From: a virus
Taxonomy: Duplodnaviria; Caudoviricetes
Length of the DNA: 29,418 nt
Strand: one strand, 5' to 3'
Virus record (IMG/VR): IMGVR_UViG_3300016466_000209
Location: 1-29,418 of that record
Positions 6,744 to 23,388 of this stretch are shown here, piece by piece; position 1 is the first letter of the stretch, and every line of letters starts with the position of its first letter. Below the pieces are notes generated by a model. That model saw nothing but the letters and a program-made list of their open reading frames with translations, did not search any database and was not told the DNA's origin. The position numbers and the translations under genes are program-made.

Positions 6744-6880
6744 ACACCGCGCTCACGATCATCTCGATGGCCGCGATCCTCCCGATCTTCACACTCCTCG
6801 GAGTCTTCGTAGGCCACAAACTCACCATCAGATCGCAGAACAACAAACCAACCAATGAAACAAACAATCGTAGCCTGTGA
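6740..6880 (+). CDS. Small single-pass membrane protein
   Basis: ATGA-coupled start; MNTALTIISMAAILPIFTLLGVFVGHK is a hydrophobic helix. Confidence 0.55.
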   Translation: MNTALTIISMAAILPIFTLLGVFVGHKLTIRSQNNKPTNETNNRSL

Positions 6881-7310
6881 CCCCGGCGTGAACGGCGGGT
6901 TCGCAGTCAAAACCCAAGACAGGATCCTCCTGTTCCCAATGCCGGAATCCGTGCCGGACATCCACGAACTCCTCATGGACCTCAAACTCTCAGACTCCCA
7001 CATCTGGATCGAGAAGGTGCCGAAGTTCGTGTCCAAACTCACACCCGCCGCAGCCGTCGCCACGCTCCACGAGAACTACGGCATCGTCCAAGGGCTCGCC
7101 TACTCACAAGGCTACGCACTCCATCGCGTCGAGCCGCGAGTCTGGCAGGAACCCCTCGGCCTCGGAGGCAGGAAGGCATGCGCCACAGGCCCTGAGTGGA
7201 AGCGTAAGCTCAAGGCCAAGGCCCAGGAACTCTACCCCCATCTGGATGTCACCCTCGGCAACTGCGATGCGCTCCTGATCCTCCACTACGCAATCGGAGG
7301 TGGCCGATGA
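6855..7310 (+). CDS. RuvC-like Holliday junction resolvase
   Basis: IVACDPGVNGG, IEKV, V.P..WQ and DALLI are the RNase H-fold acidic motifs of phage RuvC-like proteins. Confidence 0.85.
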   Translation: MKQTIVACDPGVNGGFAVKTQDRILLFPMPESVPDIHELLMDLKLSDSHIWIEKVPKFVSKLTPAAAVATLHENYGIVQGLAYSQGYALHRVEPRVWQEPLGLGGRKACATGPEWKRKLKAKAQELYPHLDVTLGNCDALLILHYAIGGGR

Positions 7311-8111: not shown

Positions 8112-8365
8112 GCGACGACCCCAACTACTACCGCGAACTTTACATGGCCGCTCAGCACGAACTCCGTGCGGTAGGCCAGAAACACACCATGCCTAGCCAC
8201 CTCGTCAAGCTGGAGCAGGAGGTTCAGGAACTGCGGGTCCTGAACGAATACCTCAGACAGAAGAACGGAAAACTCAACGAACGAATCCAAAGCCTAATCA
8301 AGCTGGGGCTGGAGACAACCAGACCGGACGGGTTAGAGCAATGGCAAGAAGAGGAGGAGCTGTGA
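8108..8365 (+). CDS. Hypothetical coiled-coil protein
   Basis: GTGA-coupled start with GGAGG upstream; heptad-like LEQEVQELRVLNEYL. Confidence 0.65.
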   Translation: MSDDPNYYRELYMAAQHELRAVGQKHTMPSHLVKLEQEVQELRVLNEYLRQKNGKLNERIQSLIKLGLETTRPDGLEQWQEEEEL

Positions 8366-8583
8366 GCCTGTCCGTAGCTTTCGTCTACAAACACACCACC
8401 ACAGGAGAAGTCCTCGTGGTGGACATCGAGCGGGCCAGAGAAATCGACTCATCCGCAGCCATGCGCCGAGGAGATTGGAAACATACCTCCACCATCGAAC
8501 CCATCACCGTCCTACAACTCATCGTCAAATCCAACGGCCAGAAGCGGGCCAAGATCATCAGGGAACTCTCAGAGCAACCATGA
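8362..8583 (+). CDS. Hypothetical protein
   Basis: GTGA-coupled start with GGAGGAG upstream; ends in an ATGA overlap. Confidence 0.6.
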   Translation: MSLSVAFVYKHTTTGEVLVVDIERAREIDSSAAMRRGDWKHTSTIEPITVLQLIVKSNGQKRAKIIRELSEQP

Positions 8584-8804
8584 AACTCAACGAACTACCA
8601 CTCGATCACCCATCCAGAAACACTCCCATCAAAGACCTCGACGTCCTCATCGTCTGCGCCCACACAGGAGCAAAACGAAATCCTCGCACCTGGAAGATCA
8701 AAAACAACACCTACAACGAACTCAACTCGTCATGGCAGAACAACTTCTACTTCGTACTCCAAGAACCGACGCCTACGTCGAGTTCTGGCTCAAAGACCGA
8801 ATAG
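8580..8804 (+). CDS. Hypothetical protein
   Basis: ATGA-coupled start MKLNELPLDHP. Confidence 0.55.
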   Translation: MKLNELPLDHPSRNTPIKDLDVLIVCAHTGAKRNPRTWKIKNNTYNELNSSWQNNFYFVLQEPTPTSSSGSKTE

Positions 8805-8989
8805 CCCTCTGGCCAGACTTCGCACGACAACTAGAACGTGAACTCAACGCTCAAATCCATCGGACTCACCAAGGACCAGATCGCCAAGATGCTCGGAACC
8901 CAAGTGATGCCAGACCCACCGAAACCAAAACCCCACATCTACCCCGGTCGCAAGATCGACCCGGCAATTACCAAGGCAATCCTCAATGA
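8732..8989 (+). CDS. Hypothetical protein (TPRTDA...FARQLERELN motif)
   Basis: N-terminal half carries a motif I recognise from small phage proteins. The C-terminal half looks like off-frame read-through across the next gene. Confidence 0.5.
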   Translation: MAEQLLLRTPRTDAYVEFWLKDRIALWPDFARQLERELNAQIHRTHQGPDRQDARNPSDARPTETKTPHLPRSQDRPGNYQGNPQ

Positions 8990-9083
8990 TAAAACCAAGG
9001 CAAATTACCGAGAACTCGCAAAGACACACGACGTCTCCGTCTACTACGTCTGGTCAGTCAAAAACAAACAACGAACCAAATAA
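8838..9083 (+). CDS. Putative small HTH DNA-binding protein
   Basis: GLTKDQIAKML and NYRELAKTHDVSVYYVWSVK are HTH-like. GTG start uncertain. Confidence 0.5.
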   Translation: MNSTLKSIGLTKDQIAKMLGTQVMPDPPKPKPHIYPGRKIDPAITKAILNDKTKANYRELAKTHDVSVYYVWSVKNKQRTK

Positions 9084-9213
9084 CCAATGGAAGGAACTCT
9101 GTCACGAATTGGCCAACTGCTTGGGCTGTGGATGCCAAAAGGAATCCGGCCTGTGCGTCCAATGCCACAAAGCCAACAAACGCTACCGCGCAATCCTCAC
9201 CCCACTCCAATGA
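8986..9213 (+). CDS. Cys-rich small protein, start uncertain
   Basis: C-terminal WKELCHELANCLGCGCQKESGLCVQCHK is Zn-finger-like; ATGA overlaps at both ends. Confidence 0.45.
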   Translation: MIKPRQITENSQRHTTSPSTTSGQSKTNNEPNNQWKELCHELANCLGCGCQKESGLCVQCHKANKRYRAILTPLQ

Positions 9214-9581
9214 AACTAGAAGAATCCATCAAACAAGTCTCCGAACTCCGAGCCAAAGGACTCACGATGAACGCCATCGGTCAACAACTCGGAGTCTCAC
9301 GACAACGAATCCACCAGATCCTCAACTCAAACATCCACATGGAAAACGAAAGGTCCAAATGGACCTTCGGACTCAGCACCAGAAACATCAGGATCGTCCA
9401 ATCACTCAACCTCACCACCAAACAGGAGGTCATCGACGCCATCATCCTCCAGAAAATCTTCCCCAACATGACCAAGAACTTCGGCATACGCTCCTACTTC
9501 GACCTCTGCGAGTGGGCCAATGTCCAGCCACCCAGCAACCTCACCTTCCCAAAACGATACCATGCAATCATCCACCCATGA
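9210..9581 (+). CDS. Sigma-region-4-like HTH fused to an RNA polymerase alpha-CTD-like domain
   Basis: GLTMNAIGQQLGVSRQRIHQI (HTH), then GLSTRNIRIVQSLNLTT...KNFGIRSYFDL resembling alpha-CTD (LSVR..N.L...I.T...NLG.KS..EI). Confidence 0.6.
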   Translation: MKLEESIKQVSELRAKGLTMNAIGQQLGVSRQRIHQILNSNIHMENERSKWTFGLSTRNIRIVQSLNLTTKQEVIDAIILQKIFPNMTKNFGIRSYFDLCEWANVQPPSNLTFPKRYHAIIHP

Positions 9582-9813
9582 CCTCGTGAACGCACTCAAC
9601 ATCCTCTCATCAGAAATCGATTCACCCGATGGAGCACCCAACGCCGTCTGCGCCGAGGCTTCCCAGCGTCTCGTTCACCTGGTCTCGCTCACAGCCCGCC
9701 TATCCGAACACATCCTCGCCAACCCCGTGCATCACCCTCAATGCAACGCCTACAACGGGTCCTACTGCAACTGTGTCCTGTCAGAAATCAGCTCCATACA
9801 AATCAAACCATGA
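9562..9813 (+). CDS. Hypothetical protein with His/Cys cluster
   Basis: MQSSTHDLVNAL...HHPQC...YCNC; ATGA overlap with the next gene. Confidence 0.6.
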   Translation: MQSSTHDLVNALNILSSEIDSPDGAPNAVCAEASQRLVHLVSLTARLSEHILANPVHHPQCNAYNGSYCNCVLSEISSIQIKP

Positions 9814-10064
9814 AGACCCCACGACACCTTCAACCATGGTACAGTACCCGCCTCCGTGACGCACGGAAACCAGAACCCATGACCGAGGCCGAACGCCTCG
9901 CAGCCTCCGAGGAAAACCGACGCATCCTCGCCAACTCAGCCGAGATCGTCGCCGCAGGAATCAGACGAGGCTGGATCTCACACGCGGTCCGAAAGCAACC
10001 TATCCCGACATGGATTCCATCGAATACACCAACCGATCAAACCCCTCCGTCATCGTTCATCTGA
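9810..10064 (+). CDS. Hypothetical protein
   Basis: ATGA-coupled start MKTPRHLQPWY. Confidence 0.55.
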   Translation: MKTPRHLQPWYSTRLRDARKPEPMTEAERLAASEENRRILANSAEIVAAGIRRGWISHAVRKQPIPTWIPSNTPTDQTPPSSFI

Positions 10065-10219
10065 TCGGCCAAGCACAGTTCCGACTCGGAGAGATGAAGT
10101 CACCAGTCGTCATCTACAGACGCGGAGACAACACCTACGTCCGACTCGCCTCAGAGTTCCACACAAAGTTCCAGCAACGAAATGAACCCACTCCAACGCG
10201 CAGCAGCATGGCTCAGTAG
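10010..10219 (+). CDS. Small SH3-like (DUF1653-like) protein
   Basis: VVIYRRG..TYVRLASEFHTKF resembles the DUF1653 V.Y....WVR...EF..KF pattern. Confidence 0.55.
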   Translation: MDSIEYTNRSNPSVIVHLIGQAQFRLGEMKSPVVIYRRGDNTYVRLASEFHTKFQQRNEPTPTRSSMAQ

Positions 10220-11951
10220 AGTACCACCAGCAGTCAGCGGCCAGAACGGCCACTCAACCACCTACACCGCAGCCGTGGGCCTCGTCCACGGCTTCGGCCT
10301 TTCTGAGACCGACGCCCTCAGCCTCCTCTCGGACTGGAACCGCTCCTGCCAGCCACCCTGGAGCGACCGCGATCTCATCCACAAGATCCGCGACGCCGCC
10401 TCCAAACCCCACGACAAACCAGCCGGCCACCTCCTCCATGCATCCGGTAGCCCTCAACACACAGACCTCACACGAGTCGTGTTCAAGCCTGCCAAACCAT
10501 TGGAGACCGACTCGGAGTTCAAGCGATTCCTCACCGCCGCATTCGCTCAAGGCGAGACCGTATCCATCTGCGAACAGGTCGAGGACGGTAGGCCAATCAC
10601 CTCAGGCTCATTCCTGCCAGTCGAGGAATGGATCAAACGCTTCGATCACCCAGATTCCATCCTCCTCCGAAAGGACCGGCTCGATGGCGTCTTCGTCCGC
10701 ATCAATCCATTCAAACCAAACCTCTACAGCGGCAGCGACAACGACGTCAGCGCATACCGCCACGTCCTCGTAGAGTTCGACGAACTCCCCAAACCCGAAC
10801 AGGAACAACGCCTCCGCGCATCCGGCCTCCCCATCAGCGTCCTCATCGATTCCGGCGGCAAATCCATCCACGCATGGGTCCGAGTAGACGCATCCTCCCG
10901 CAAGGAATGGGACGCCCGCCGCGACGAAATCTACAAGGCCATCCCCGGCGTCGATCCAAAGAACAAGAACCCATCCCGCTTCTCACGCCTACCCGGCGCA
11001 TGGCGCGGCGAATCCCAACAGAAACTGTTGGCCACCAACCTGGGCGCAGACTCATGGGAGGATTGGCTCACCAACCGCGAAAGCGAGGAAGACCAAGCCA
11101 CCATCGTCTCAGTCCGAGACCTCATCCACTTCGACCCAGCCAACGATCCAGACAACCTCATCGGCAACCGCTGGCTCACCCGCGGATCCTCCATGATCAT
11201 CAGCGGTGGCACCGGCATCGGGAAGTCATCCCTCATGATGCAGATCATCATCCGCTGGGCCCTCGGCCTCGACTTCTTCGGCATCACCCCAGTCCGCCCT
11301 CTCAAGATCGGTGTGATCCAAGCAGAGAACGACAAGGGCGACCTCGCAGAAGCGTTCCAAGGCGTATGCAGAGGGCTGGAAACGACAGGCGATCAGATGA
11401 AACGGTTACAGGCCCAGCTGGAGTTCCGAACCGAATCCGTTCGCACCAGCGACTCCTTCCTCGCCTACGCTCGCCGGTTCATCCACCGCTCCAAGCTCGA
11501 TGTCATCGTCGCCGATCCACTCTTCTCCTACTTCGGGGGCGACCTCTCCGACCAAGGCGAGGTCAGCGTGTTCCTACGCAACAAGCTCCAGCCAATCCTC
11601 CACGAGACCAAGGTCGTCTGGATCTGGATGCACCACATCTCCAAACCCCAGCGCAAGGACGGCGAACCACTCACCACCATGGAACTGGCCCACGCAGGAT
11701 TCGGATCCAGCGAACTCGCCAACTGGGCACGAGAGATCGCCGTGCTCCACGAAGTAGGCCAGTCCAAGCCCAGACGCTTCCAGCTGGCATTCTGCAAGCG
11801 CGGATCACGACTCCCAGCCAACAACCTCAACCTCCAACACGCAGCCACAGGCATCAAATGGGAACAATGGAACCCCATGGTCATGACCGGCGCACAACTC
11901 AAAGAGAAGAAACCGTATGTAAATAAGGCCAAGCGGAGGGACATGATATGA
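10182..11951 (+). CDS. Primase-helicase fusion: PriCT-like helical domain + AEP (RepB-like) primase + AAA_25/RecA-family (RepA-like) helicase
   Basis: WNRSCQPPWSDRDLIHK (PriCT-like); VEFD, SGGKSIH and RFSRLPG (AEP); GGTGIGKS Walker A, IVADP Walker B, HHISK and GSS (AAA_25). Confidence 0.85.
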   Translation: MNPLQRAAAWLSRVPPAVSGQNGHSTTYTAAVGLVHGFGLSETDALSLLSDWNRSCQPPWSDRDLIHKIRDAASKPHDKPAGHLLHASGSPQHTDLTRVVFKPAKPLETDSEFKRFLTAAFAQGETVSICEQVEDGRPITSGSFLPVEEWIKRFDHPDSILLRKDRLDGVFVRINPFKPNLYSGSDNDVSAYRHVLVEFDELPKPEQEQRLRASGLPISVLIDSGGKSIHAWVRVDASSRKEWDARRDEIYKAIPGVDPKNKNPSRFSRLPGAWRGESQQKLLATNLGADSWEDWLTNRESEEDQATIVSVRDLIHFDPANDPDNLIGNRWLTRGSSMIISGGTGIGKSSLMMQIIIRWALGLDFFGITPVRPLKIGVIQAENDKGDLAEAFQGVCRGLETTGDQMKRLQAQLEFRTESVRTSDSFLAYARRFIHRSKLDVIVADPLFSYFGGDLSDQGEVSVFLRNKLQPILHETKVVWIWMHHISKPQRKDGEPLTTMELAHAGFGSSELANWAREIAVLHEVGQSKPRRFQLAFCKRGSRLPANNLNLQHAATGIKWEQWNPMVMTGAQLKEKKPYVNKAKRRDMI

Positions 11952-12274
11952 CATACAGAGATAGGTTCGGGAGCATGCCAAAGCTCAAGCATGATAAGAA
12001 CCCGGAGCATAGCGAAGTGATCAATCACATAGCGGGCGCGATGCAATGTGATAAGGAGCGGGCCAGTCGTGTGTTCAATGAACTGAGGAAACGAGGTATC
12101 ATTGTATTCGACCGTATCGACCGGGCATGGCACGGAGCCGACAACCGCTCCATCCGGTACACCGATTCCGAGCGGATCGAGAGGCTGGAGATCAGGCTCG
12201 AGACCCTGGAAACCAAGCACCGCCGCCTGCTCGCCGCCTACCGCGCCCATATCCAACTAGGGGGGTCTCCTTAG
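11948..12274 (+). CDS. Hypothetical protein, possible winged helix plus coiled coil
   Basis: ATGA-coupled; RVFNELRKRGIIVFD (wHTH-like) followed by a heptad stretch RIERLEIRLETLE. Confidence 0.65.
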   Translation: MTYRDRFGSMPKLKHDKNPEHSEVINHIAGAMQCDKERASRVFNELRKRGIIVFDRIDRAWHGADNRSIRYTDSERIERLEIRLETLETKHRRLLAAYRAHIQLGGSP

Positions 12275-12749
12275 GGGGGGTCTCAGGGGCCAATGGGGCA
12301 CCCCTAATTGGACACTTCCTCCCCCCTAGGGCAACACCCACTATCCCCTCTAAATAGGGGAGTGTCGCCCCCCCATTCCTTGGGCTACCCTGCCCAAGGG
12401 GGGGGCGACACAGTAAACTATCCCACTCACTCGCTCACTCGCTCCTTCGCTCAGGTTCTCCTCCTCCCCTATTTGGAAGTAATTCTTCTCCCGCGAGCGG
12501 AAGCTGGGGTTTGGTCGGGAAGCGGGAATGCCCCGCGCTGGAGCTGGAAGGGGTCGCCAGTGCGTCGGAGGGGTGGGTCCGCATCATTTTACGATCCGGG
12601 GTTCGGACGTGCCAGAAACGAAAAGCCCCCGGATGGGGTTTCCGGGGGTGGGATTCGGGGGATCGGAAGGGGGAGGTCCGGGGGGAGCGGATCAGGGGGT
12701 TACCAGCCCCCCCGCGAGATCCCCCCTAGGGGTACCGGAAGGGGGAGGT
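12257..12749. other. Structured non-coding region, candidate replication origin
   Basis: Long hairpin 12362-12411 nested in the outer inverted repeat 12349-12362/12464-12477. CTCACTCG repeats, inverted CCCCCCTAG motifs and a 14-bp direct repeat. Lies just downstream of the primase-helicase, at a strand-skew switch. Confidence 0.5.
12619..12650 (-). terminator. Rho-independent terminator for the minus-strand RHH operon
   Basis: Minus strand reads CCCCCGGA-AACCCCA-TCCGGGGG-CTTTTCGTTT. Confidence 0.65.
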
Positions 12750-12753
12750 TGGC

Positions 12754-12933
12754 CTACTCCTTCGCCACCCCCATCAGATCCGGCTCCACAAGCATGACGT
12801 GGTAATCAACCACATGACGGAGATACGCACCCCAGCTACGAAAACCAAGCTCCTCAGCTCGCTTCTGTAGTAATACAAGAAGACGATACTCAATCTGGAA
12901 ACTAGTGGTCACCATGTCCGAGGAACCGCTCAC
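12754..12933 (-). CDS. Ribbon-helix-helix (CopG/Arc-like) DNA-binding protein, 59 aa, not in the ORF track
   Basis: Read by hand: VSGSSDMVTTSFQIEYRLLVLLQKRAEELGFRSWGAYLRHVVDYHVMLVEPDLMGVAKE. Beta-strand TTSFQI, helix, G, helix; GTGA-coupled to the upstream gene. Confidence 0.65.
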   Translation of the reverse strand: MSGSSDMVTTSFQIEYRLLVLLQKRAEELGFRSWGAYLRHVVDYHVMLVEPDLMGVAKE

Positions 12934-13196
12934 AGCTCACCCCCACTCTCACGGGTGAGCAGGATGATGATCTCCCATGTCGGGCGGTCCCGATTCCCAG
13001 CCTCCCGCCAAATGCGGTGAGCCGCCTTCTCCCAGTACCCCGCCTCATCGGCCAGCTCCTCACGACCCTTAGGGTCGCCATGATACCGAGCCATCATCTC
13101 CTGATGGCCACGGAACAACGTCCGCACCAGCTTCTCATCGGACTCGCTCAGAGCCCACCGACCAACCATCGGCGCAGGAATTACAGCATTCATCAC
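12930..13196 (-). CDS. Hypothetical protein
   Basis: 88-aa ORF with AAAGGA SD and a sigma70-like promoter upstream. Confidence 0.65.
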   Translation of the reverse strand: MMNAVIPAPMVGRWALSESDEKLVRTLFRGHQEMMARYHGDPKGREELADEAGYWEKAAHRIWREAGNRDRPTWEIIILLTRESGGEL

Positions 13197-13240
13197 TCAA
13201 TCCTTTCAGTTTCACCACCGCTCCATGCGGCGATGAGGAC

Positions 13241-13270
13241 AACCTACCGCACCATCATCCCCATCGTCAA
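13241..13270 (-). promoter_or_regulatory. Sigma70-type promoter for the 13196-12754 operon
   Basis: Minus strand TTGACG-18 nt-TAGGTT, followed by a 5' hairpin (13213-13235). CCGCACCAT direct repeat at 13247 and 13282. Confidence 0.6.
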
Positions 13271-13373
13271 GCGGGAATCTGCCGCACCATGAGGATTTTC
13301 TGGACGCCATCCCGACCAATGTTTACGGGCCTCCAAACGAAATCCGGCAGACCGCGCAGGAATTTGTCCGATT

Positions 13374-13422
13374 TTCCAAACCCCGATTCCAAGATCCCAA
13401 ACCCCGAATCCCGAATCACGGT
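13374..13422. repeat. Seven degenerate tandem heptamers (consensus approx. YCCCRAW)
   Basis: TTCCAAA CCCCGAT TCCAAGA TCCCAAA CCCCGAA TCCCGAA TCACGGT. Confidence 0.7.
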
Positions 13423-13438
13423 ATGGCGTATGCCAAGC

Positions 13439-13487
13439 ATAGGACATCCAATGTCCGAACCTAGAGGATAGGACATCGAGTGTCCGA
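13439..13487. promoter_or_regulatory. Pair of palindromic operator-like sites GGACA-N5-TGTCC
   Basis: ATAGGACATCCAATGTCCGA (13439-13458) and ATAGGACATCGAGTGTCCGA (13468-13487), 29 bp apart. Confidence 0.6.
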
Positions 13488-13517
13488 TGCCGGTATCCTG
13501 GGGAACGGGTACGGGTA

Positions 13518-13542
13518 GGAAAGGAAGGAAGGAAGGAAGGAA
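13518..13542. repeat. (GGAA)n purine microsatellite
   Basis: GGAAAGGAAGGAAGGAAGGAAGGAA. Confidence 0.8.
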
Positions 13543-13559
13543 CTAGTGGCCCACTAGAC

Positions 13560-13591
13560 AAAGAAAAGACCCCAAGGGGATTCCTTGGGGC
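13560..13591 (-). terminator. Rho-independent terminator ending the leftward early operon
   Basis: Minus strand CCCCAAGG-AATCCC-CCTTGGGG-TCTTTTCTTT. Confidence 0.75.
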
Positions 13592-13611
13592 TTGAATCGA
13601 ACGGAGCCTAA

Positions 13612-13710
13612 CTATCGGCGGACGATACTAGCTAGGGCCGAGAGCAGCATCAGGAGAAAACAGAAAAGGCAAAGGGCGAGAAACCCAAGGGCGCGAAGGA
13701 TGGGCTTCAT
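13612..13710 (-). CDS. 32-aa membrane peptide
   Basis: Read by hand: MKPILRALGFLALCLFCFLLMLLSALASIVRR; ATGA-coupled to the upstream gene. Confidence 0.55.
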   Translation of the reverse strand: MKPILRALGFLALCLFCFLLMLLSALASIVRR

Positions 13711-13904
13711 GATTCGATCCCTTCGATGAGCCTTGCAAACTCACGGAGGGTATCCTTGCTAGTAAACTCCGGGCGAAGGAAAACCGTTGAACGGTCCCGA
13801 TAGGCGATGATTGCGCCCCGATTGCGCCGGGACCCCCAAAGGTTCAAAGCAATCGAGGCTTCGATCGCGGAGTCTTCCGATTTGAAAGTGTGTTCGGTTT
13901 TCAT
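13707..13904 (-). CDS. Hypothetical early protein
   Basis: 65-aa ORF tightly packed in the operon. Confidence 0.6.
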   Translation of the reverse strand: MKTEHTFKSEDSAIEASIALNLWGSRRNRGAIIAYRDRSTVFLRPEFTSKDTLREFARLIEGIES

Positions 13905-13908
13905 GGGT

Positions 13909-14139
13909 TTAAATCATGCCGATCACAAGGAGAACGGAGGGGCATCCGTGGGGGCAAGTTCCGTCAGGCTCCACGATGCAACCCTCTGAACAGCATGCGG
14001 GTGCCGTTGCGTCAAACGAGGCATGCCGAACGAAAGAGAAAACGGAATCTTCGTTGCTCGAGTCGATACCCTCGTTTTCCAGGGTTTCGTTAACACTGAT
14101 GCGGTAGGGATTGCGGGGGTTTGTTTGTGTGGTTTTCAT
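13909..14139 (-). CDS. Small Cys-rich metal-binding protein
   Basis: Start MKTTQTNP at 14139; C-terminal CCSEGCIVEPDGTCPHGCPS motif. Confidence 0.7.
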   Translation of the reverse strand: MKTTQTNPRNPYRISVNETLENEGIDSSNEDSVFSFVRHASFDATAPACCSEGCIVEPDGTCPHGCPSVLLVIGMI

Positions 14140-14200
14140 ATGTTGAGAGGGCATCAATTGCCCGCGCAACCCACGCTCGCGCATGGGCTGGCCGGGGAAT

Positions 14201-14890
14201 TCAAGCCACGGATTCAACGAAATGCCGACGGCCCGACCCGTGGGCAGGAATGAAAACCGACCGTTGCCCGCCCCGCGCACCGGCACACGCTAGGCAATCT
14301 GAACACGGGGTCCCAAGGCGATCGCTGGCGCATAGGGTTTCCATCGTGTGGTGGTCCAGGTCGGGGGTGACTCTAAAGGTGCTCCAGCCCATTGACCTAG
14401 CGATGACCAGCTCGGCGGCGGTGTCCACGGAGGCCATCAGGATTGAACGCCAACCCTGCAGGCTAGGCTTTCTCCATTGGTGAGTGTAGCCTGTCCATCC
14501 CGAAGCGACACCCGCGATCGCAAGAGCAAGGGACAATGGCATATGCGTGGGGTCGCCGTAGGCCCCAAAACGGACCCGGCGGCCCGCGAAAACAGAAACG
14601 GAAGGCAGGGGCAAATATGCGCCCGCTTTCCACGCTCTCCAAATCGCAAGGGGAGCTTGTCCGACATTGACGTAGCAGGAACGCTCGCTCCCGTCGCCGT
14701 TTCCACGGTGTCGGCAATTGCCGCAGATTAAACGGTCTAGACCTTCACGGATTGCATGGACGGGGTCCACGGAACGGACAAGGATCCAGATCTGGATCAT
14801 ATCGCCCGTTTTCCGATTGTCGCTGGGGGATTCAAAGCCCGTCGCGATGATCACTCGGGAAGAGTCTTCGTGGAGAACAAAACCGTTCAC
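14201..14890 (-). CDS. Cys-rich putative Fe-S protein (phage Gp88-like, degenerate radical-SAM-like)
   Basis: N.KTG, CGNC...CY, RFGAYGDP, GYTHQW, MASVD, C...CSDCLAC and AHG motifs. Confidence 0.7.
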   Translation of the reverse strand: MNGFVLHEDSSRVIIATGFESPSDNRKTGDMIQIWILVRSVDPVHAIREGLDRLICGNCRHRGNGDGSERSCYVNVGQAPLAIWRAWKAGAYLPLPSVSVFAGRRVRFGAYGDPTHMPLSLALAIAGVASGWTGYTHQWRKPSLQGWRSILMASVDTAAELVIARSMGWSTFRVTPDLDHHTMETLCASDRLGTPCSDCLACAGARGGQRSVFIPAHGSGRRHFVESVA

Positions 14891-15000
14891 TGGACGCCTC
14901 CGATCAGCAACTCCGCGAAGCAGAGGGCGAGGGCGAGGATTACGAGAGCCGCAAGCGCGAGAAGCGCGAGGGCGGACAGTAGGTTTTTGAGGGAACGCAT
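14887..15000 (-). CDS. 37-aa membrane peptide, first gene of the leftward operon
   Basis: Read by hand: MRSLKNLLSALALLALAALVILALALCFAELLIGGVQ; GTGA overlap with the next gene. Confidence 0.55.
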   Translation of the reverse strand: MRSLKNLLSALALLALAALVILALALCFAELLIGGVQ

Positions 15001-15012
15001 GGGTTTGGAACG

Positions 15013-15067
15013 GAGCCGATCATCGGCTCACGGGCAGCACGGTACGGCAGAGTACCACGGAGGTCAA
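15013..15067 (-). promoter_or_regulatory. Sigma70-type early promoter with a downstream palindrome
   Basis: Minus strand TTGACC (15067-15062), 17 nt, TACCGT (15044-15039); GAGCCGAT-C-ATCGGCTC palindrome at 15013-15029. Confidence 0.7.
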
Positions 15068-15123
15068 TAGGAAAGTGTTGGGGACTTTCGCGAAGGGAAT
15101 CCAGAAGGCAAAGGGGGGAACGC

Positions 15124-15555
15124 ATGGCGAAGGCGAAGGCGAAGGAAAACGAGGCGGAAGTCCAAGTCCAGGTGAAACCAGGGAAGAAGATTGGAAGGCC
15201 GCAAAAAACGCTTTCAACGGAGCAGATAAAAACAGCAATCGAAGCGGCCCGCCTTGGAATACCGATGGAACGCATCGCCATCGGATGCGGGTTCCATGAT
15301 GGAGGGGGAACGTGGGCTTTGTATCTACAAAGAAACCCTTCCTTTGCTAATCAAATAAGAGAAGCGCAATTCAAGGGGGAATTGGAATTGGCTAGTGTGG
15401 TACGCTCCGCATCCAATGGTTGGCAAGGCTCCGCGTGGTTGTTAGAGCGTACTCGTGGATATGTAGCTAGGGCTTCACTAGAACATACTGGAAAGGGTGG
15501 TAAGGATTTGTCAATTAGCGGCGCACTACTAGGTGCTTTCGGTAATACTAAATAA
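15124..15555 (+). CDS. terS: Putative terminase small subunit
   Basis: GRP..L motif plus HTH, WQGSAWLLER motif and LEHTG tail. Immediately upstream of terL. Confidence 0.7.
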   Translation: MAKAKAKENEAEVQVQVKPGKKIGRPQKTLSTEQIKTAIEAARLGIPMERIAIGCGFHDGGGTWALYLQRNPSFANQIREAQFKGELELASVVRSASNGWQGSAWLLERTRGYVARASLEHTGKGGKDLSISGALLGAFGNTK

Positions 15556-15633
15556 AGACCACGGGGGGGGACGACCCCCAAGGTGGGGGTGGAGGTTCCC
15601 TGATACCCCCCTCTTCCAACCGCCCACAATTTT

Positions 15634-17169
15634 ATGCCTGTCAAGCAGATAAAGAGGAAACGTTCTCCATCGTTGGGGATGGGTTCTCATATTCCTGCGT
15701 GGAAGCAGCGGAAGATGTTGGAGGAGGCACAGAGGCTGGAGAACTTTCCTGAGATGATGCTTGGCCTACGGGATGTGTATCCGTGGCAGAAGGCGGTGTT
15801 GGGTGCGTTGAATGAGAAGCATGCGAAGGTGGCGTTGAAGGCTGCGAATGGGTCAGGGAAGACGAGCATGGTGGCGGCGAGTGTGGTGATTTGGCATATG
15901 CTTCGTTGGCCTGGAAGCCTCGTTGTGTGTACGGCTGGTGTGTATCGGCAGGTGGCGGATGCGTTGTGGCCGCATTTGCGGAAGATGATCAATGGGTTGG
16001 GGGGTGAGGAGAATGGGTTTTCGATCAAGGATGGTGAGGTGCGGTATGTGTATCCGAGGAAGGTGGATGGGCAGGAGTTGGTGAGTCGGTGTATTGGGTT
16101 TTCGGCTAGTAATCCTGAGAAGGCTGAGGGGTGGCATGTGCAGGGGCCGAGTGGGGATTTGTTGTATGTGGTGGATGAGGCGAAGGCTGTGCCGGACGGG
16201 ATCTTTCAGTCGATGGAGCGGTGTCAGCCGACGCGGGTGTTGTTGATGAGCAGTCCTGGTGGGAGCAGCGGGTATTTCTATGAGGTGTTTCGGAGGAATG
16301 ATGGGAAGTGGAAGACGTTTACGGTGACGGCGTATGATTGTCCGCATATTCGGAAGGAGTGGATTGAGGAGCAGGTGGCGAGGTGGGGAGAGGGTCATCC
16401 GTTGGTGCGGTCGATGATACATGCGGAGTTCATGGAGGATGACGGGAGTTTGACGGCGGTGCGGACGGCGGACTGGCAGAGGCTGGTGAGTGGCCCGCCG
16501 AAGGAGGATACGGAAGGTCACCGTTTGACTGCTGGGTGTGACTTTAGTGCTGGTGGGGATGAGAGTGTTCTCGTGGTGCGGCATGGGAACGTGGTGAAGG
16601 GGCTGGTGAGGTGGCGGGACAAGGACACGATGGCGAGTGTGGGGAGGTTTATCAGTGAGTTTCGGAAGTGGAAGTTGAAGGCGGAGGATGTGTATGCGGA
16701 TGTGGGTGGGATGGGGATCGTGATGTGCGACGCTCTCCGAGCGGAGGGGTGGGATGTGAGGCGGGTGAATTTTGGGGAGCGGGCGATTCGGGATGATCAG
16801 TTTGTGAATCGTGCGGCGGAGATGTGGATTGAGTTTGGTCGGATGGTGGAGGAGGGGAAGGTGAACTTGGGGCCTGTTGGGAATGACGAGGTTCTTCTCC
16901 AGCAGTTGGTGACCCGGAAGGTGCGGACGAATGGGAAGGGGAAGCTGACGTTGGAGGGGAAGGACGAGTTGAGGGCGAGGGGGATCAACAGTCCTGATCG
17001 TGCGGATGCGTTGGTGCTGGCGTTCTGTGGTGGTGGTGGGAAGCGGATGGATGAGTATCTGAGGGCGGTGGGAGAGGATGGGAGGAGCTTGTTGGAGCGG
17101 ATGGAGGAGGAGATTGGCCCACTGGAGCCGGAGGGGGTTGCGCTTGCTGGATGTGAGGTAGGGGGGTAG
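15634..17169 (+). CDS. terL: Terminase large subunit
   Basis: YPWQ, ANGSGKT Walker A, YVVDEA Walker B, MSSP, nuclease GCDFS..GDES and SPDRADA. Confidence 0.93.
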   Translation: MPVKQIKRKRSPSLGMGSHIPAWKQRKMLEEAQRLENFPEMMLGLRDVYPWQKAVLGALNEKHAKVALKAANGSGKTSMVAASVVIWHMLRWPGSLVVCTAGVYRQVADALWPHLRKMINGLGGEENGFSIKDGEVRYVYPRKVDGQELVSRCIGFSASNPEKAEGWHVQGPSGDLLYVVDEAKAVPDGIFQSMERCQPTRVLLMSSPGGSSGYFYEVFRRNDGKWKTFTVTAYDCPHIRKEWIEEQVARWGEGHPLVRSMIHAEFMEDDGSLTAVRTADWQRLVSGPPKEDTEGHRLTAGCDFSAGGDESVLVVRHGNVVKGLVRWRDKDTMASVGRFISEFRKWKLKAEDVYADVGGMGIVMCDALRAEGWDVRRVNFGERAIRDDQFVNRAAEMWIEFGRMVEEGKVNLGPVGNDEVLLQQLVTRKVRTNGKGKLTLEGKDELRARGINSPDRADALVLAFCGGGGKRMDEYLRAVGEDGRSLLERMEEEIGPLEPEGVALAGCEVGG

Positions 17170-17186
17170 GAAGGGGTGAAGGATTT

Positions 17187-19070
17187 ATGATGACCGAAAA
17201 GGGGCGGAGTGATTTGCAGGGGCAGATACTGACGAGTATCGAGCAGCGGAGTCCTTGGGAGTTGCGGCAGACTCGGTGGTATGAGTTGCGGCATCATGGG
17301 CTTCGGCGGACGAACAAGCCGTGGCCGAAGGCTGCGGACCTGCATTGGCCGTTGATTGACACGGCGATTGAGAAGCTGAAGCCGTTGTTCCTCCAGCAGG
17401 CGTTGGGGATGGATGTTGTGGCCAGCTTTGTCCCGATGAGGCAGCAGTTGAACAGCTACACCAAAGTGGCTGAGGACTGGTTCAACTACAAGATTCGGGA
17501 GAAGACGAACTTTGTGGATGAGGTGTTGAGCTGGGTGGATTACACGCTGATGAGTGGGCGTGGGGTGATGAAGTGTTTCTGGAATCCTGGGGACAAGAGG
17601 GTGGGGTTTGAGGCGGTGGATCCGATGTATTTCGTGGTGCCGCCGTACACCACGGATTTGCAGGATGCGGATTGGGCGGTGCATGTGATGCCGATGAGTG
17701 TGGGTGCGTACAAGCGCATGGCTGGCCAGTTTGGTTGGAAGGCGGACTCGAAGACGATCCAGCGGATCCGTGGGAACCCGCAGGAGGACGACAACATTCC
17801 GGGTGCGGCGAGTGAGAATGACGCGAAGCAACTGCGTGAGGGGATTACTTACACGAGCAACACCGATGGGGTGATCATCTGGGAGGTGTATCGGAAGACG
17901 GATGCTGGGAAGTGGGAGGTGTATCTTTACAGTCCTGCGGCTGTGGATCTGGATCTGCGGGATCCCATGGAGTTGCCGTATGACCATGGGCAGTGTCCGT
18001 TCGTGGATTTCCCGTATGAGATCAAGGACAAGGGGTGGTTTAGTCCGCGGGGTGTGTGTGAGATCTTGGCTCCGTTTGAGTTGAGCATGACCTCGATGTG
18101 GAACCACAAGCATGATGCGATGACGTTGTACAACCGTCCGTTGTTCCGGGCGGAGCGGGAGTTGCCGAACAGCATCAATCTGCGGTTTCAGCCGGGGCAG
18201 ATCCTGCCGTATGGGGTGGCTCCGGTGCAGATGCCGCAGCCGCCGGTGAGTTTCGATCAGGAGTTGAACCAGACTCGGGCGGTGGCTGAGAACCGGATTG
18301 GGAGCCCGGACTACACGATGGGCAGTGTGATGAGTGGTGGCAGCGACCGGAGGACGGCGACGGAGATCCAGAGCATCAATGCGCAGGCGATGCAGAGTGG
18401 GGATTTGCGGGCGCGGTTGTTCCGCATGGCGTTGGGCAAGCTGTATCGTCAGGCGTGGTCGTTGTATGTGCAGTACGACAGCAAGAGTCTGAGGTATCGG
18501 TTTGCGGAGGATTCGTTGGAAGCGGATCCGGTGGCGTTGCATGACCAGTATGAGTTGGAGCCGAAGGGTGGGATGGACATGGTGAGTCGTCAGGTGATGG
18601 TGCAGCAGGCCATCAATCGGAAGCAGTTGTTCATGAACTCGCCTTGGGTGGATCAGGTGGAGTTGGACAAGAGCATCATGGAGTTGGATGATCCGAGTCT
18701 GGTGAAGCGGTTGCTGCGGGATCCTGGGCAGAAGCAGGTGGATGAGTTGGAGGATGAGGCGAAGACGATCCCGACGCTGCTCGTGGGTGTGCCTGTGCCT
18801 GCGAAGCCTGGTCAGAACTATGCGGGGAGGATCGGGGTGTTGATGCAGTATCTGAATGGGGCGATGCAGCAGGGGCAGGTGTTGAGTCCTGTGGCGAAGA
18901 ATGCGTTCATGAGCCGGCTGGACAGTCTGCTACAGGCTTACGAGCAGGTGGCGACGAATGAGGCGCGGAAGCTGCGGAAGGAGATCCAGAAGTTTTTTGA
19001 GAGTACGGGGATGCTCGCGGCCCAGCAGGCCCCGGCCCCGGCCCCGGCCCCTGTTCCTGCTGTCCAATGA
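17187..19070 (+). CDS. Portal protein
   Basis: 627 aa directly after terL; G.G..K..W, EAVDP..F.VPP and RTATEI motifs of P22/podovirus-type portals. Confidence 0.85.
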   Translation: MMTEKGRSDLQGQILTSIEQRSPWELRQTRWYELRHHGLRRTNKPWPKAADLHWPLIDTAIEKLKPLFLQQALGMDVVASFVPMRQQLNSYTKVAEDWFNYKIREKTNFVDEVLSWVDYTLMSGRGVMKCFWNPGDKRVGFEAVDPMYFVVPPYTTDLQDADWAVHVMPMSVGAYKRMAGQFGWKADSKTIQRIRGNPQEDDNIPGAASENDAKQLREGITYTSNTDGVIIWEVYRKTDAGKWEVYLYSPAAVDLDLRDPMELPYDHGQCPFVDFPYEIKDKGWFSPRGVCEILAPFELSMTSMWNHKHDAMTLYNRPLFRAERELPNSINLRFQPGQILPYGVAPVQMPQPPVSFDQELNQTRAVAENRIGSPDYTMGSVMSGGSDRRTATEIQSINAQAMQSGDLRARLFRMALGKLYRQAWSLYVQYDSKSLRYRFAEDSLEADPVALHDQYELEPKGGMDMVSRQVMVQQAINRKQLFMNSPWVDQVELDKSIMELDDPSLVKRLLRDPGQKQVDELEDEAKTIPTLLVGVPVPAKPGQNYAGRIGVLMQYLNGAMQQGQVLSPVAKNAFMSRLDSLLQAYEQVATNEARKLRKEIQKFFESTGMLAAQQAPAPAPAPVPAVQ

Positions 19071-19330
19071 CCTGTAGAGATTGTCGATACTGTGCTGCCG
19101 ATGGAACCTGCCGGAGGTATCCGCCGAGTGGCAGACCCACTTGTTGGCCTACTGTCCATGCGATGGACTGGTGTGGCGAGTTCCAGGCGATTCCGGCTCC
19201 GCCCCCGCCGCCGCCGCCGCCGATGATGGAGCAGCTTGAGGAGGGTGTTCCTCCGAAGGTTCGGTTCCAGAAGGCGAGGACCAATGGGACGTTGAAGGAG
19301 ATCCAAGAATCACCGCTGTTCCAATCCTGA
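19067..19330 (+). CDS. Cys-rich hypothetical protein with poly-Pro linker
   Basis: CRDCRY..G.CRRYPP..WP.V...DWCGEF motif seen in phage proteins. Confidence 0.7.
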   Translation: MTCRDCRYCAADGTCRRYPPSGRPTCWPTVHAMDWCGEFQAIPAPPPPPPPPMMEQLEEGVPPKVRFQKARTNGTLKEIQESPLFQS

Positions 19331-19331
19331 T

Positions 19332-19577
19332 ATGGCTGAGTACCAAGGCAAGAAGGTGACGTTGAACAAGCCGTTCTACACGCCCGGCGAGGCGAAGAAG
19401 AAGGCTGTGTATGTCCGCAATCCGAAGGGGACTGTGATCAAGGTCCGGTTCGGTGATCCGAAGATGGAGATCAAGAAGGATGATCCGGGTCGGCGGAAGA
19501 ACTTTCGTGCGCGGCACAACTGCGACACGGCGACGGATCCAACGAAGCCGAGAACGTGGTCGTGCCGAGCATGGTAA
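19332..19577 (+). CDS. Conserved small basic phage protein
   Basis: AEYQGKKVTLNKP...VRFGDP...RRKNFRARHNC...WSC..W, a widespread aquatic-phage family. Confidence 0.8.
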   Translation: MAEYQGKKVTLNKPFYTPGEAKKKAVYVRNPKGTVIKVRFGDPKMEIKKDDPGRRKNFRARHNCDTATDPTKPRTWSCRAW

Positions 19578-19589
19578 CCACATAACCAC

Positions 19590-19751
19590 ATGAAGAAGAA
19601 ACCCACGAAGTTCAGCAAGTTGGCCACGCAGCTCAAGAAGGAGGGCGCGGATGATCCGAAGGCTCTGGCCGCTTGGATCGGGCGCAAGAAGCTCGGGGCT
19701 GCGGAGTTCATGCGCCGTGCGGCTGCCGGTCGGAAGAAGGCCGCGAAATGA
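19590..19751 (+). CDS. Small basic protein (53 aa), not in the ORF track
   Basis: Read by hand: MKKKPTKFSKLATQLKKEGADDPKALAAWIGRKKLGAAEFMRRAAAGRKKAAK; ATGA overlap with the next gene. Confidence 0.7.
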   Translation: MKKKPTKFSKLATQLKKEGADDPKALAAWIGRKKLGAAEFMRRAAAGRKKAAK

Positions 19752-20071
19752 TCAGCTTCATTGGCCGACTGCGAGCGGCTTGGACATTTGGTCGTCATCA
19801 GAAGTGGGTGGACCCGCTTCCGTGGGGCAAGGAGGAGGCGATGGCATTGAACGCATTCCTCAGGTCTGACGTGGGCAAGAAGTTCAAGGACGCCCTGTTG
19901 AACACGGTCCTGATGCAGAACGCTTCTGCGATTACGGACCGAAACCATTTGCAATACTCGGCTGGGTTTGCAATGGGTCAGGCCAGTCTTGTGAAGGTCA
20001 TCGAAGTGATGGCCGATCAGGAATCAATTACGGGACAGGATACTGATCCGGATTCTGTCACGAACACATAG
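19748..20071 (+). CDS. Hypothetical head-region protein
   Basis: ATGA-coupled start MISFIGRL; lies just before the scaffold. Confidence 0.7.
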   Translation: MISFIGRLRAAWTFGRHQKWVDPLPWGKEEAMALNAFLRSDVGKKFKDALLNTVLMQNASAITDRNHLQYSAGFAMGQASLVKVIEVMADQESITGQDTDPDSVTNT

Positions 20072-20124
20072 GATCAAAGTTGCGGTTGTTGGTCTGTGCG
20101 GGCCAGCAAACGAGTGATAGCACA

Positions 20125-21060
20125 ATGTCAGACGAAACTCAGAACACAGCGATGGATGCCAATGCGATGCTCGCACTGGCCAACGACTTCGATGCTGGTG
20201 TCGATGTTGACAATCGGAGTACGGAGCAGCCGGAAACCAAACAGGAGGTTGCTCCAGCCGAGAAGGAAACCACAGAAGTGGAGTCCGCCGGGAAAGAGGT
20301 TGAGAACACGGCCAAGAGCGAGAGTAAGCAGGAGCAGAAGCCGCCCGCTGAGCAGAAGCGGGATTCCAAGTTTGCCCAGGAGCAACAGCGAAAGGCCAAG
20401 ACTTGGGAGCAGATCAACGCCGAGAAGGAGGCCATCAAGGCCGAGCGCGAGGCGGTGAAACGGGAGCGGGAGGAATGGCAGAAGCAGAGGGAGCAATCCC
20501 AGGTTGCGGAAGCCAATTCCTTCAGGGATGACAAGGGCTACACGGCGGAGGACTACGAGGCTGCGGCCAAGGAGTTCGATGCCGATGGCGATACCCAGTT
20601 GGCCAAGGCAGCGCGAGCCAAGGCCGAAGGGGTTCGCAAGTCCGCGTCCCAGCAGGCGCAGAAGGTCCAGCAGGAGCGCATGGCAAAGCAGTGGGCTGAC
20701 AACTACAATCGATTGGCCGACAAGGAGCCGTGGTTGAAGGATCAGTCGAGTGCCGAGTACAAGCGGACTGTTGAGATTCTCCAGCGTGTGCCGTTCCTCA
20801 CGGGGATGCCGGATGGACTCGTCCATGCGGTTGAACTGATGAAGCTGCAAGATACCGCTGGCAAAGCTCAGTCGCTTGAGAGCGAGAACAAAGCTCTCAA
20901 GGAACAGTTGGAAAAGCTCCAGCAGAAGACAGCTATCGGGAAGAGCATTCCGGCAGGACAACTCAAGGCCGAGGAGAAGGATTTCTCCAAGCTGTCCCTC
21001 AAGGAGCAGAGGGAGGCACTCATGCGAGCGTCGAGGGAGTTCGACCGGGAAGCGGCCTGA
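20125..21060 (+). CDS. Capsid scaffolding protein
   Basis: Glu/Lys/Gln-rich coiled coil directly upstream of the MCP; likely start MSDETQ at 20125. Confidence 0.75.
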   Translation: MSDETQNTAMDANAMLALANDFDAGVDVDNRSTEQPETKQEVAPAEKETTEVESAGKEVENTAKSESKQEQKPPAEQKRDSKFAQEQQRKAKTWEQINAEKEAIKAEREAVKREREEWQKQREQSQVAEANSFRDDKGYTAEDYEAAAKEFDADGDTQLAKAARAKAEGVRKSASQQAQKVQQERMAKQWADNYNRLADKEPWLKDQSSAEYKRTVEILQRVPFLTGMPDGLVHAVELMKLQDTAGKAQSLESENKALKEQLEKLQQKTAIGKSIPAGQLKAEEKDFSKLSLKEQREALMRASREFDREAA

Positions 21061-21081
21061 TGGCACAACCACAACTACAAT

Positions 21082-22230
21082 ATGCCAGTCACGACCTCAA
21101 CTACGCTTACTAACCAGTTCCAGAACTACTTCAGCAAGGAGCTGCTCAGCATCGTCACTCAGGAGACGATCCTCGATCAGTTCGGCATGAAGGCCCCGAT
21201 CCCCAAGAACAACGGCAACAAGGCCATCTCGATGTTCCGCTTCGGTGCGCCGAGCATCGGCAGCGTTCAGTCTTTGACCGAGGGTACGGCCATCGCCTCG
21301 GCCAACTACCGCGCTCTCGCGCTGAACAAGCTCGACAAGAGTCTGTCGCAGTACGGTCAGGTCATCGGCCTCACGGACATCCTCCGCGCCACCGACCTGT
21401 TCAACTCGCTCCAGCAGGCCACCAAGACCAGCGGTCTGGACATGGCCCTCTGGGTTGACTCGGTGATCCGCAACACGCTGATCGGCTCCAACCTCACGGC
21501 CAGCGGTTCGTCCATCGGTTCCGCTGCCGAGGGTGGTGGCACGTTCGACAACTCGGATGCCTGTAACACCGCCGCCGGTTCCGGTGGCATCAAGGTGTAC
21601 GGCAACCCGGCCACGCTGACCACGCAGACCTTCTCTGCGCTGAACAGCGACACGACCGCCGCCAACACCACGATGACCGCCTCGGCTGTCCTCGATTCCA
21701 TGACCCGGCTGAAGCGCAACCGCGCCCCGCTGATCAATGGCGGCTACGTCCTCGCCACCGATCCCCGCGTGGCCCGCGACCTGATGCGCGACAGCGACTG
21801 GTTGAACGCCTCCAACTACGGCAACAAGGGCCAGCCGTTCTACAAGGGCGAGGTCGGCTCCATCTACGGTTGCCGCGTCGTCACCCAGACCAACTCGTTC
21901 GTCAGCACCGGCTCCGGTACGGCGAGCGACGAGTTCGTCTATCAGGCGACTGCCGCTGGCGGTGGTCTGGCCGTCAGCAAGGACATCATCGCTTCGTTCT
22001 TCTTCGGCAGCGAGGCGTTCGGCATCCCTGCCCTGACCGGTGATGATCCGCTCTCCCCGAAGATCGTGATCACCGACACCCCGGACAAGAGCGACCCGCT
22101 GAACCAGCTCGTCACGGTCGGCGTGAAGCTCTACTTCGCCACGCTCCGTCTGGCCGCTGGTAACACTGGTTCCACCGGCAACCCGGTCTGGTACCTGGTG
22201 CATCGTACGAAGACCTCGACCACGCTGTAA
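21082..22230 (+). CDS. Major capsid protein (N4-gp56-like, HK97 fold)
   Basis: IPKNNG, LTEG, QYG, GEVGSIYGCRVV and DPLNQ..T.G.K motifs; strongly biased codon usage. Confidence 0.9.
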   Translation: MPVTTSTTLTNQFQNYFSKELLSIVTQETILDQFGMKAPIPKNNGNKAISMFRFGAPSIGSVQSLTEGTAIASANYRALALNKLDKSLSQYGQVIGLTDILRATDLFNSLQQATKTSGLDMALWVDSVIRNTLIGSNLTASGSSIGSAAEGGGTFDNSDACNTAAGSGGIKVYGNPATLTTQTFSALNSDTTAANTTMTASAVLDSMTRLKRNRAPLINGGYVLATDPRVARDLMRDSDWLNASNYGNKGQPFYKGEVGSIYGCRVVTQTNSFVSTGSGTASDEFVYQATAAGGGLAVSKDIIASFFFGSEAFGIPALTGDDPLSPKIVITDTPDKSDPLNQLVTVGVKLYFATLRLAAGNTGSTGNPVWYLVHRTKTSTTL

Positions 22231-22625: not shown

Positions 22626-22626
22626 G

Positions 22627-23144: not shown

Positions 23145-23150
23145 TGACCT

Positions 23151-23387: not shown

Positions 23388-23388
23388 T

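Follow-up and report, generated by a model that had tools for sequence, protein, structure and literature searches.

Opposite strand biases on the two sides of a neutral centre in an uncultured tailed phage, and their possible relation to the genome ends

The DNA analysed here, called the window, is the whole 29,418-nt virus record IMGVR_UViG_3300016466_000209 and comes from an uncultured tailed phage. Its gene set includes a RecT-like gene, exonuclease VIII, a single-strand DNA-binding protein (SSB), a superfamily 2 (SF2) helicase, a Holliday-junction resolvase, a primase-helicase, terS, terL, portal and capsid. A stretch of about 2 kb between two conserved elements, E_L and E_R, separates two arms of opposite composition: about 90% of the silent positions are G or T on its right side, and about 88% are C or A on its left side. 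The features concerned are collected in Table 1. Complete relatives of this phage are 36-40 kb long, and freshwater or lake metagenome labels predominate among the listed runs that carry part of the window.

Table 1. Features of the biased region of the window. K is the G+T fraction at four-fold degenerate sites.
Feature	Position	Strand	Description
Left arm, C/A-rich top strand	8362..11951	+	Eight genes, primase-helicase last; per-gene four-fold K 0.04-0.26
Primase-helicase fusion	10182..11951	+	N-terminal helical domain, AEP primase domain, superfamily 4 (SF4) helicase; phrog_2597, AAA_25
108-aa gene	11948..12274	+	K 0.46 in the window genome; C/A-biased in most near-identical copies
Palindrome cluster	12257..12412	.	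Strong double hairpin 12344-12411; may be an origin or a site of snap-back priming
Open reading frame with left-arm bias on the top strand	12930..13196	-	Top-strand K 10/44 = 0.23; no family match; putative gene
E_L, conserved non-coding element	13385..13490	.	Left-arm inner edge; motif conserved upstream of terL
Neutral variable centre	13490..15556	.	Holds terS (15124-15555) and minus-strand genes; may be a long terminal repeat
E_R, conserved G-run/C-run element	15557..15633	.	Right-arm inner edge, between terS and terL; 77 nt
Right arm, G/T-rich top strand	15634..19577	+	terL 15634-17169, portal 17187-19070, two small genes; K down to about 0.5 by 20 kb

On the right side, K amounts to 214/234 (0.91) in terL and 239/264 (0.91) in portal, or 453/498 for the two genes together. 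On the left side it falls to 36/305 (0.12) in the primase-helicase gene (C196, A73, G24, T12), and each of the eight genes of this arm lies between 0.04 and 0.26. The background plus-strand genes have a K of 1123/2977 (0.38; Fisher p 5e-119 against terL and portal, 2e-21 against the primase-helicase), and terS, with 37/71 (0.52), is neutral. A change-point analysis divides the region into segments at 9209-11900 (K 0.12), 11915-15531 (0.45), 15534-19010 (0.92) and 19016-25399 (0.52). An earlier note, made from the letters of this DNA alone, had counted 26 C and 8 G at 11101-11160 and 25 G and 7 C at 16081-16140. Both counts are exact, and the skew they pointed to holds at synonymous sites. The same note spoke of a mirror image fading with distance. 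The signs are indeed opposite on the two sides, but their sizes are unequal (relative to the background, +0.53 in the right arm and -0.26 in the left), and the profile is a plateau followed by a fairly sharp outer drop.

The abrupt stop that had been placed near 11915 is visible in the window genome and is partly specific to it, as the 108-aa gene has a K of 0.25-0.37 in 12 of 15 rows of 93-100% identity, a set that includes duplicate contigs. Together with the top-strand composition of the minus-strand open reading frame (ORF) at 12930-13196, this places the left inner edge nearer to 13.4 kb than to 11915. In the clade where the bias is most extreme, the nearest 300-nt bin to the left of E_L has a K of 0.34-0.41 in 11 of 12 loci, two of these being duplicates. 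A G-rich palindrome cluster at 12.3-12.8 kb breaks up the left arm. At the outer side, the T/A component of the left-arm bias appears to extend to the resolvase gene (6855-7310, K 0.22), which three less biased genes separate from the arm; the gene at this position has a negative TA skew among the related genomes listed. The gene following the primase-helicase exists in two forms: some lineages have it on the plus strand, where it overlaps the stop codon, and others on the minus strand in convergent orientation, with 30-43% identity. The right arm (15634-19070) contains 56 TA dinucleotides, about half of the 105 expected from synonymous shuffles. Runs of at least five G are depleted there, and no enrichment in Chi-like or G-quadruplex motifs beyond the codon content was found.

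The bias is conserved in relatives. In a first scan its sign was kept in 80/80 terL relatives (89-100% identity, terL K 0.60-0.93) and in 31/31 primase-helicase relatives (K 0.10-0.37). Portal has a K of 0.70-0.92 in the 54 relatives that have this gene, and terS a mean K of 0.48 in 72. In one of the alignments, a wrongly oriented row, L486, was left out. Within the family the variation is graded (terL K 0.57-0.96) and the extreme state is confined to one clade, while K ranges from 0.38 to 0.91 across 80 distant terL loci. Among the complete genomes listed, five show a right-hand bias that comes down to about 0.5 within 4-5 kb. The nearest cultured terL matches, Akkermansia phages with 32-36% identity, are unbiased (terL K 0.51 and 0.54). 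An independent contig, L006, covers both arms with equally extreme values. Since contigs of this kind span both arms, the window is no chimera, and the assembly artefact that had been considered as a possible source of the skew is thereby ruled out.

A natural experiment separates the bias from the genes that carry it. Scanning with the E_R pattern yielded 68 new loci, with terL 77-80 nt downstream in 59, a contig too short in 2 and other DNA in 7. In a sister group of five contigs (terL 71-74% identity, two of them nearly identical in the compared region, ORFs called mechanically), DNA is inserted between E_R and terL: E_R adjoins terS in four contigs, the fifth having no upstream DNA, and terL lies 3.8-5.4 kb beyond E_R. 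The inserted ORFs that start within 2 kb of E_R have a K of 957/1409 (0.68), with values up to 0.93, against 932/1540 in the inserted ORFs further away, 577/1195 (0.48) in terL and 632/1499 in portal. An intergenic stretch of 238 nt in this group is composed of G98, T77, A36 and C27 (175/238 G+T). Since the inserted DNA is biased while the displaced terL and portal are not, the bias belongs to the position and not to the terL or portal mRNA. The right-arm bias is positional, is tied to E_R, which stays with terS across loci, and reaches about 4-5 kb, non-coding DNA included. The independence of the bias from the coding strand, proposed from the window alone, and its independence from gene identity are borne out by the sister group, by its genes as well as its non-coding DNA, and by the minus-strand ORF of the left arm.

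Two rival explanations can be considered at this point. Codon usage specific to individual genes, horizontal transfer or chimeric assembly would account for boundaries near gene ends and for a mosaic centre. However, terL and portal lose the bias away from E_R, unrelated genes and non-coding DNA gain it, and independent contigs cover both arms; an origin of this kind is very improbable. Transcription-associated bias or R-loops, driven by strong promoters that point outward from the control region, would agree with a right arm that is the non-template strand of rightward transcription, with the G-runs of E_R on that same strand and with outer edges near gene boundaries. The left arm would nevertheless require a long antisense RNA across a plus-strand operon, and this RNA would have to pass the predicted minus-strand terminators at 12861-12846 and 12648-12626 (consensus matches only). 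Moreover, the minus-strand genes of the centre are neutral and the capsid gene, which lies further downstream with the same orientation, shows a K of 0.46, which leaves transcription an improbable cause.

Besides transitions, the substitutions in the arms include C>G and A>T. By parsimony, the extreme-clade primase-helicase shows 3 C>T and 36 C>A among 95 changes, and terL with portal 10 G>A and 50 G>T among 126; in the unbiased SF2 helicase of all relatives the counts are 11 C>T and 12 C>A, 7 G>A and 4 G>T. Likelihood models were fitted to four-fold columns, from 21, 13 and 16 sequences in the extreme clade and from 22 sequences per gene in a moderate clade, the latter drawn at random within set K ranges. 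An asymmetry limited to transitions gave an Akaike information criterion (AIC) higher by 77 units in the extreme clade and by 79 in the moderate clade than a C/A-to-G/T model with a single parameter. On this basis single-strand deamination alone (C>T, A>G) was rejected, C>G and A>T being asymmetric as well, and the long-lived single-stranded DNA suggested in the earlier note does not explain the arms by deamination alone. In the extreme clade the strongest asymmetry is precisely that of C>G and A>T, and the ratio of C>G over G>C is 16, against 3.6 in the moderate clade. The model comparison and these ratios could both be biased by recombination, which like tree error lies outside the models.

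Mutation bias is the simpler reading of the arm composition, and selection may have a share in it. Weak selection could by itself keep G/T abundant on one strand and C/A on the other close to the ends or an origin, for instance by favouring unstructured resected 3' tails for the RecT-like annealing protein or by suiting a translocating enzyme. In the extreme clade, one C/A-to-G/T parameter is about as good as four (AIC 6447.5 vs 6445.9); changes within each class are roughly strand-symmetric, and the synonymous divergence of the arms is low. All of this speaks for such selection. Over all K/M sites (G/T versus C/A), gamma is 0.7-1.4 and above zero at 7/8 settings, but a general GC preference (control gamma 0.7-1.7) confounds this estimate. 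At GC-conservative sites, allele frequencies give a gamma of 0.3-1.1, whereas selection alone would need 1.1 in the moderate clade and 2.2-2.4 in the extreme clade; the needed value falls outside the interval at 3/8 settings and zero falls inside at 7/8. The disfavoured changes of extreme-clade terL and portal number 28 against 37 neutral ones on terminal branches and 5 against 40 on internal branches (parsimony, uncalibrated), but the primase-helicase shows no terminal-branch excess. Similarly, the folding of the terL C/A strand is much weaker than that of recoded controls (-7.6 vs -20.0 kcal/mol per 150 nt), yet the primase-helicase folds like its controls (-20.5 vs -22.1). Taken as the cause of the arms, selection is rather unlikely.

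The two elements bounding the centre are unlike each other. E_L is made up of CCGAAT-type heptad repeats, a GTATGGCGTATG core and two GGACA-N5-TGTCC palindromes, and its motif precedes terL by 2.0-3.4 kb in 79 non-redundant loci. Exact matches to a 12-mer of E_L in four distant loci were discounted as a coding coincidence. E_R is conserved whereas the DNA immediately upstream of it varies, and on its bottom strand a mostly conserved GTG comes after a hairpin. A search with the E_R profile detected a single copy in each genome and, below E 1, no inverted one in the window or in G001-G005; no plasmid match to E_R was found, Rfam returned only a chance match (E 0.14), and the promoter and terminator scans stayed at chance level. 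Separate strand-specific initiation sites had been envisaged for this region: two distinct conserved sites do flank the neutral centre, but they are not inverted twins.

Across the 79 loci the centre has a K of about 0.5 on both strands, and it is mosaic. terS (phrog_4102) and the neighbouring gene diverge fastest, and in seven genome pairs the synonymous divergence of terS is the highest or comes behind only that of small neighbouring genes. A cysteine-rich 229-aa gene on the minus strand (14201-14890; phrog_2554, E 7e-65), a candidate early gene, is found in the centre of 67/79 loci. In L022, L032, L104 and L127, AT-rich short repeats, possibly terS-binding DNA, lie between terS and E_R. Near 38.1 kb of G007, a terS-like start joins sequence that in G022 sits about 280 nt downstream of E_R; the 3' end of terS and E_R seem to be deleted there, by a real deletion or by an assembly fault.

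A comparison with a phage of annotated termini suggests what E_R may be. The Sinorhizobium phage phiM5 (GenBank MF074189) has annotated direct terminal repeats of 357 bp. It has in common with the window the terL (phrog_2, phrog_5902) and portal (phrog_1216) families, with terS immediately upstream. The phiM5 terS spans the repeat, which ends 35 nt before the terL start, directly after a C-run/G-run motif. E_R resembles this motif in position and make-up, although its profile has no match in phiM5. By analogy, the right end of the window genome is predicted near 15598-15606. The complete genome G011, a relative without the same primase family, contains an E_R-like element, and its terL is enriched in G to a milder degree (G62:C32; G881:C997 over all its genes). 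This links the site to packaging. That genome ends are processed in this region, as the earlier note had proposed, thus receives support by analogy from the matching spot in phiM5, and none from contig depths or contig ends.

The explanation tentatively preferred here, at somewhat less than an even chance, is that the bias of the arms arises from outward synthesis at the boundaries of a long terminal repeat marked by E_L and E_R. These elements would be the limits of the repeat, at which the DNA is cut or nicked in each generation, E_R corresponding to the terminase-defined end. The centre would then be the terminal repeat itself, neutral because it is present at both ends or copied from both sides. 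Synthesis would always run outward from E_L and E_R over the first 4-5 kb, while the remaining genome would be copied both ways. The primase-helicase would drive this outward synthesis, and the outward-made strand would gain G/T by biased misinsertion or strand-biased repair. This explanation ranks above an origin alone, selection and transcription, in that order.

Several observations weigh against it. The terL of phiM5 is free of G/T bias (K 0.36), and so is that of G010 (K 0.49-0.52), a complete genome with an E_R-like match and no such primase. terL relatives of 43-48% identity with C-run elements are unbiased as well (terL K 0.38-0.54), some of them with the same primase family. Outside the extreme clade the strengths of the two arms are uncorrelated (rho 0.06, n = 45 of the 48 loci with both genes). 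The four-fold distances of terL, portal and primase-helicase do not exceed those of the SF2 helicase, so the arms are not hypermutable, and the disfavoured changes look suppressed, as selection would also yield. Contig depths and contig ends gave no usable direct sign of a terminal repeat. One contig that runs from the left arm into a different centre has a depth of 21.4 against 27.3 for terL, with no sign of doubling, depths from the five runs used being unable to rank regions; upstream contig ends lie 19-624 nt to the left of E_L in 25/73 loci, with no sharp peak. Raw reads on the window from three runs (1, 38 and 8) are too sparse for terminus mapping.

An origin-based alternative would involve the primase-helicase, which matches the profiles 6zp9 (E 7e-7) and 1g8y (E 1.6e-6). 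Its structure was modelled from an alignment with a predicted local distance difference test score (pLDDT) of 90.6, a single-sequence fold (pLDDT 43) being set aside. In this model the helicase domain is closest to RSF1010 RepA (Z 23.2, root-mean-square deviation (rmsd) 2.5, 233 aligned; top three rows Z 22.9-23.2, next 21.4). The modelled primase domain resembles RepB' (3h20, Z 14.8, rmsd 6.8, 178 aligned; 3h25, Z 14.4, rmsd 4.8, 172 aligned) and, level with 3h25, the S-2L PrimPol 6zp9 (Z 14.4, rmsd 3.3, 171 aligned). According to the available part of PMC8567376, RepB' primes at two similar long-hairpin sites and RSF1010 replicates in the leading-strand mode only; the available part of PMC8065100 describes polymerase activity for the S-2L PrimPol, with similar gene neighbours. 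No polymerase was found among the 46 ORFs of the window, and family A or B polymerases were found in 0/5 related genomes with positive controls (PF00136 of family B, 0/5). PF03175 (protein-primed family B polymerase, as in phi29-type replicons) and RepC (PF06504) also scored in 0/5 genomes, but no control genome scored for either.

A bipartite replication origin independent of packaging would assign the loading of this primase-helicase to the repeats of E_L or to the hairpins at 12.3 kb, and would make E_R a single-strand priming site. Within the first 4-5 kb on either side, and only there, polarity would be fixed or lagging-strand priming delayed. The sign of the bias is that of an ordinary origin as described in the available part of PMC3269016, with G/T on the outward-made strand, and the RepB'- and RepA-like folds recall the priming mode of RSF1010. 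The hairpin and GTG of E_R would suit such a site, as would the double hairpin at 12344-12411, whose folding (z = -7.7, 0/200 shuffles as good) has related counterparts in relatives. Every strongly biased complete genome examined has the fused primase-helicase; five partial records combine a biased terL with no primase, but they are only 48-72% complete, so its absence there shows nothing. In L217 and L216, which have other terminase families and the same primase family (by construction, as both were found through the primase), K flips at the terS/terL junction, from 0.22-0.28 to 0.74 and from 0.28 to 0.64 respectively. A flip at this junction also speaks for the terminal-repeat reading.

On the other hand, E_R stays with terS, and it is present in genomes whose replication module is a different one. 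An inverted copy of it is absent from the genomes searched, and its folding is no better than that of shuffles (z 0.17 and 0.68). Aster, EFC-1, G012 and G013 have primase relatives yet no bias; with phiM5 and G010 they show little or no bias, which counts against an end and an origin alike as a sufficient cause. The shape of the profile, fitted with the codon preference of highly expressed genes left aside, is divided. A delayed-priming curve with a reach of 4.4 kb is best for the right arm to 25 kb (AIC 1599.5 vs 1603.5 for a step), the left arm favours the step (2268.9 vs 2277.3), and exponential decay is best over the full right side (2614 vs 2622 and 2647). A whole-circle strand-displacement gradient fits far worse on both arms (to 25 kb on the right, 1775 vs 1600; on the left, 2302 vs 2269) and was rejected. 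An origin alone is possible, though less probable than outward synthesis from terminal-repeat boundaries.

A few observations lie apart from this argument. G010 has a G/T-rich top-strand zone 4.3-9.5 kb upstream of its E_R-like element, far from terL, with several genes of K 0.57-0.68, perhaps a different initiation site. The capsid gene (21082-22230) has A at 2/225 four-fold sites and G in 37/37 two-fold purine codons, which suggests strong translational selection. The RecT-like gene (3377-4348) encodes 323 aa, against about 255-260 aa at the same position in most complete relatives, and this annealing-protein slot is variable among them. Simple short repeats are present as a GGAA array at 13511-13549 and as proline/alanine-coding repeats at 19021-19063, the end of portal, and 19187-19236, the end of the next gene. 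No tRNA gene was found in the window.

Strand bias is usually taken as a genome-wide, deamination-driven trace of replication. The bias described here is instead local and near-saturating, and it is tied to a 77-nt element beside terS, with which it moves onto unrelated DNA. A literature search, in which subscription papers and supplements were outside the scope, found no description of such bias at phage termini, and a coupling between packaging site and replication start may be undescribed in the literature searched. If the terminal-repeat reading is true, ends and initiation sites could be placed in uncultured phages from sequence only, with a right end near 15600 and a left boundary near 13.4 kb predicted for this family. 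A more specific proposal, unlikely in its full form, is that the phage's own primase-polymerase-helicase copies the first 4-5 kb outward from terminase-defined ends before the host replisome takes over, its preference for inserting G/T having written the near-saturating scar; such a scar would map both the genome ends and the hand-over distance. The graded natural variants of the family make it possible to ask which mutation or repair step makes the keto skew.

In animal mitochondria, strand displacement leaves a gradient that is ascribed to the transitions C>T and A>G. The right arm of the phage likewise fits a gradient running from a start site to a site of delayed second-strand priming, but the transitions-only model fits the phage arms worse. 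phiM5 has the terL and portal families and the gene order of the window, and its end lies in a C-run/G-run element before terL; it differs by its short repeat, its family A polymerase, its lack of G/T bias and a terS of a different PHROG without pairwise similarity to that of the window. With the IncQ plasmid RSF1010, as presented in the available part of PMC8567376, the phage would share the RepA and RepB' folds and a hairpin and GTG readable on the template strand of E_R. Its domains are nevertheless fused, and it has neither a pair of similar inverted sites such as ssiA/ssiB nor a whole-circle leading-only profile. The PrimPol module of cyanophage S-2L, in the available part of PMC8065100, is similar in its AEP domain, the top solved-structure sequence match, in its exonuclease VIII and SF2 helicase neighbours, and in the lack of a family A or B polymerase, as found in the five related phage genomes. 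In the window, however, the helicase is of the RepA-like SF4 type, the helical domain is N-terminal and polymerase activity is putative; the available part of PMC8065100 mentions no strand bias for S-2L. Finally, the oriC-type skew of the available part of PMC3269016 also switches sign at a control region, puts G/T on the outward-made strand, is seen at four-fold sites and does not depend on gene strand. The phage bias differs from it by its strength (about 0.9), by its reach of only 4-5 kb in genomes of 37-40 kb, with a return to about 0.5 on the right where the other is replichore-long, by a neutral gap of 2 kb between two unlike elements, and by an extreme clade most asymmetric in C>G and A>T. 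The bias of this phage therefore resembles origin skew in its sign and placement, and departs from it in being neither replichore-wide nor centred on twin sites.

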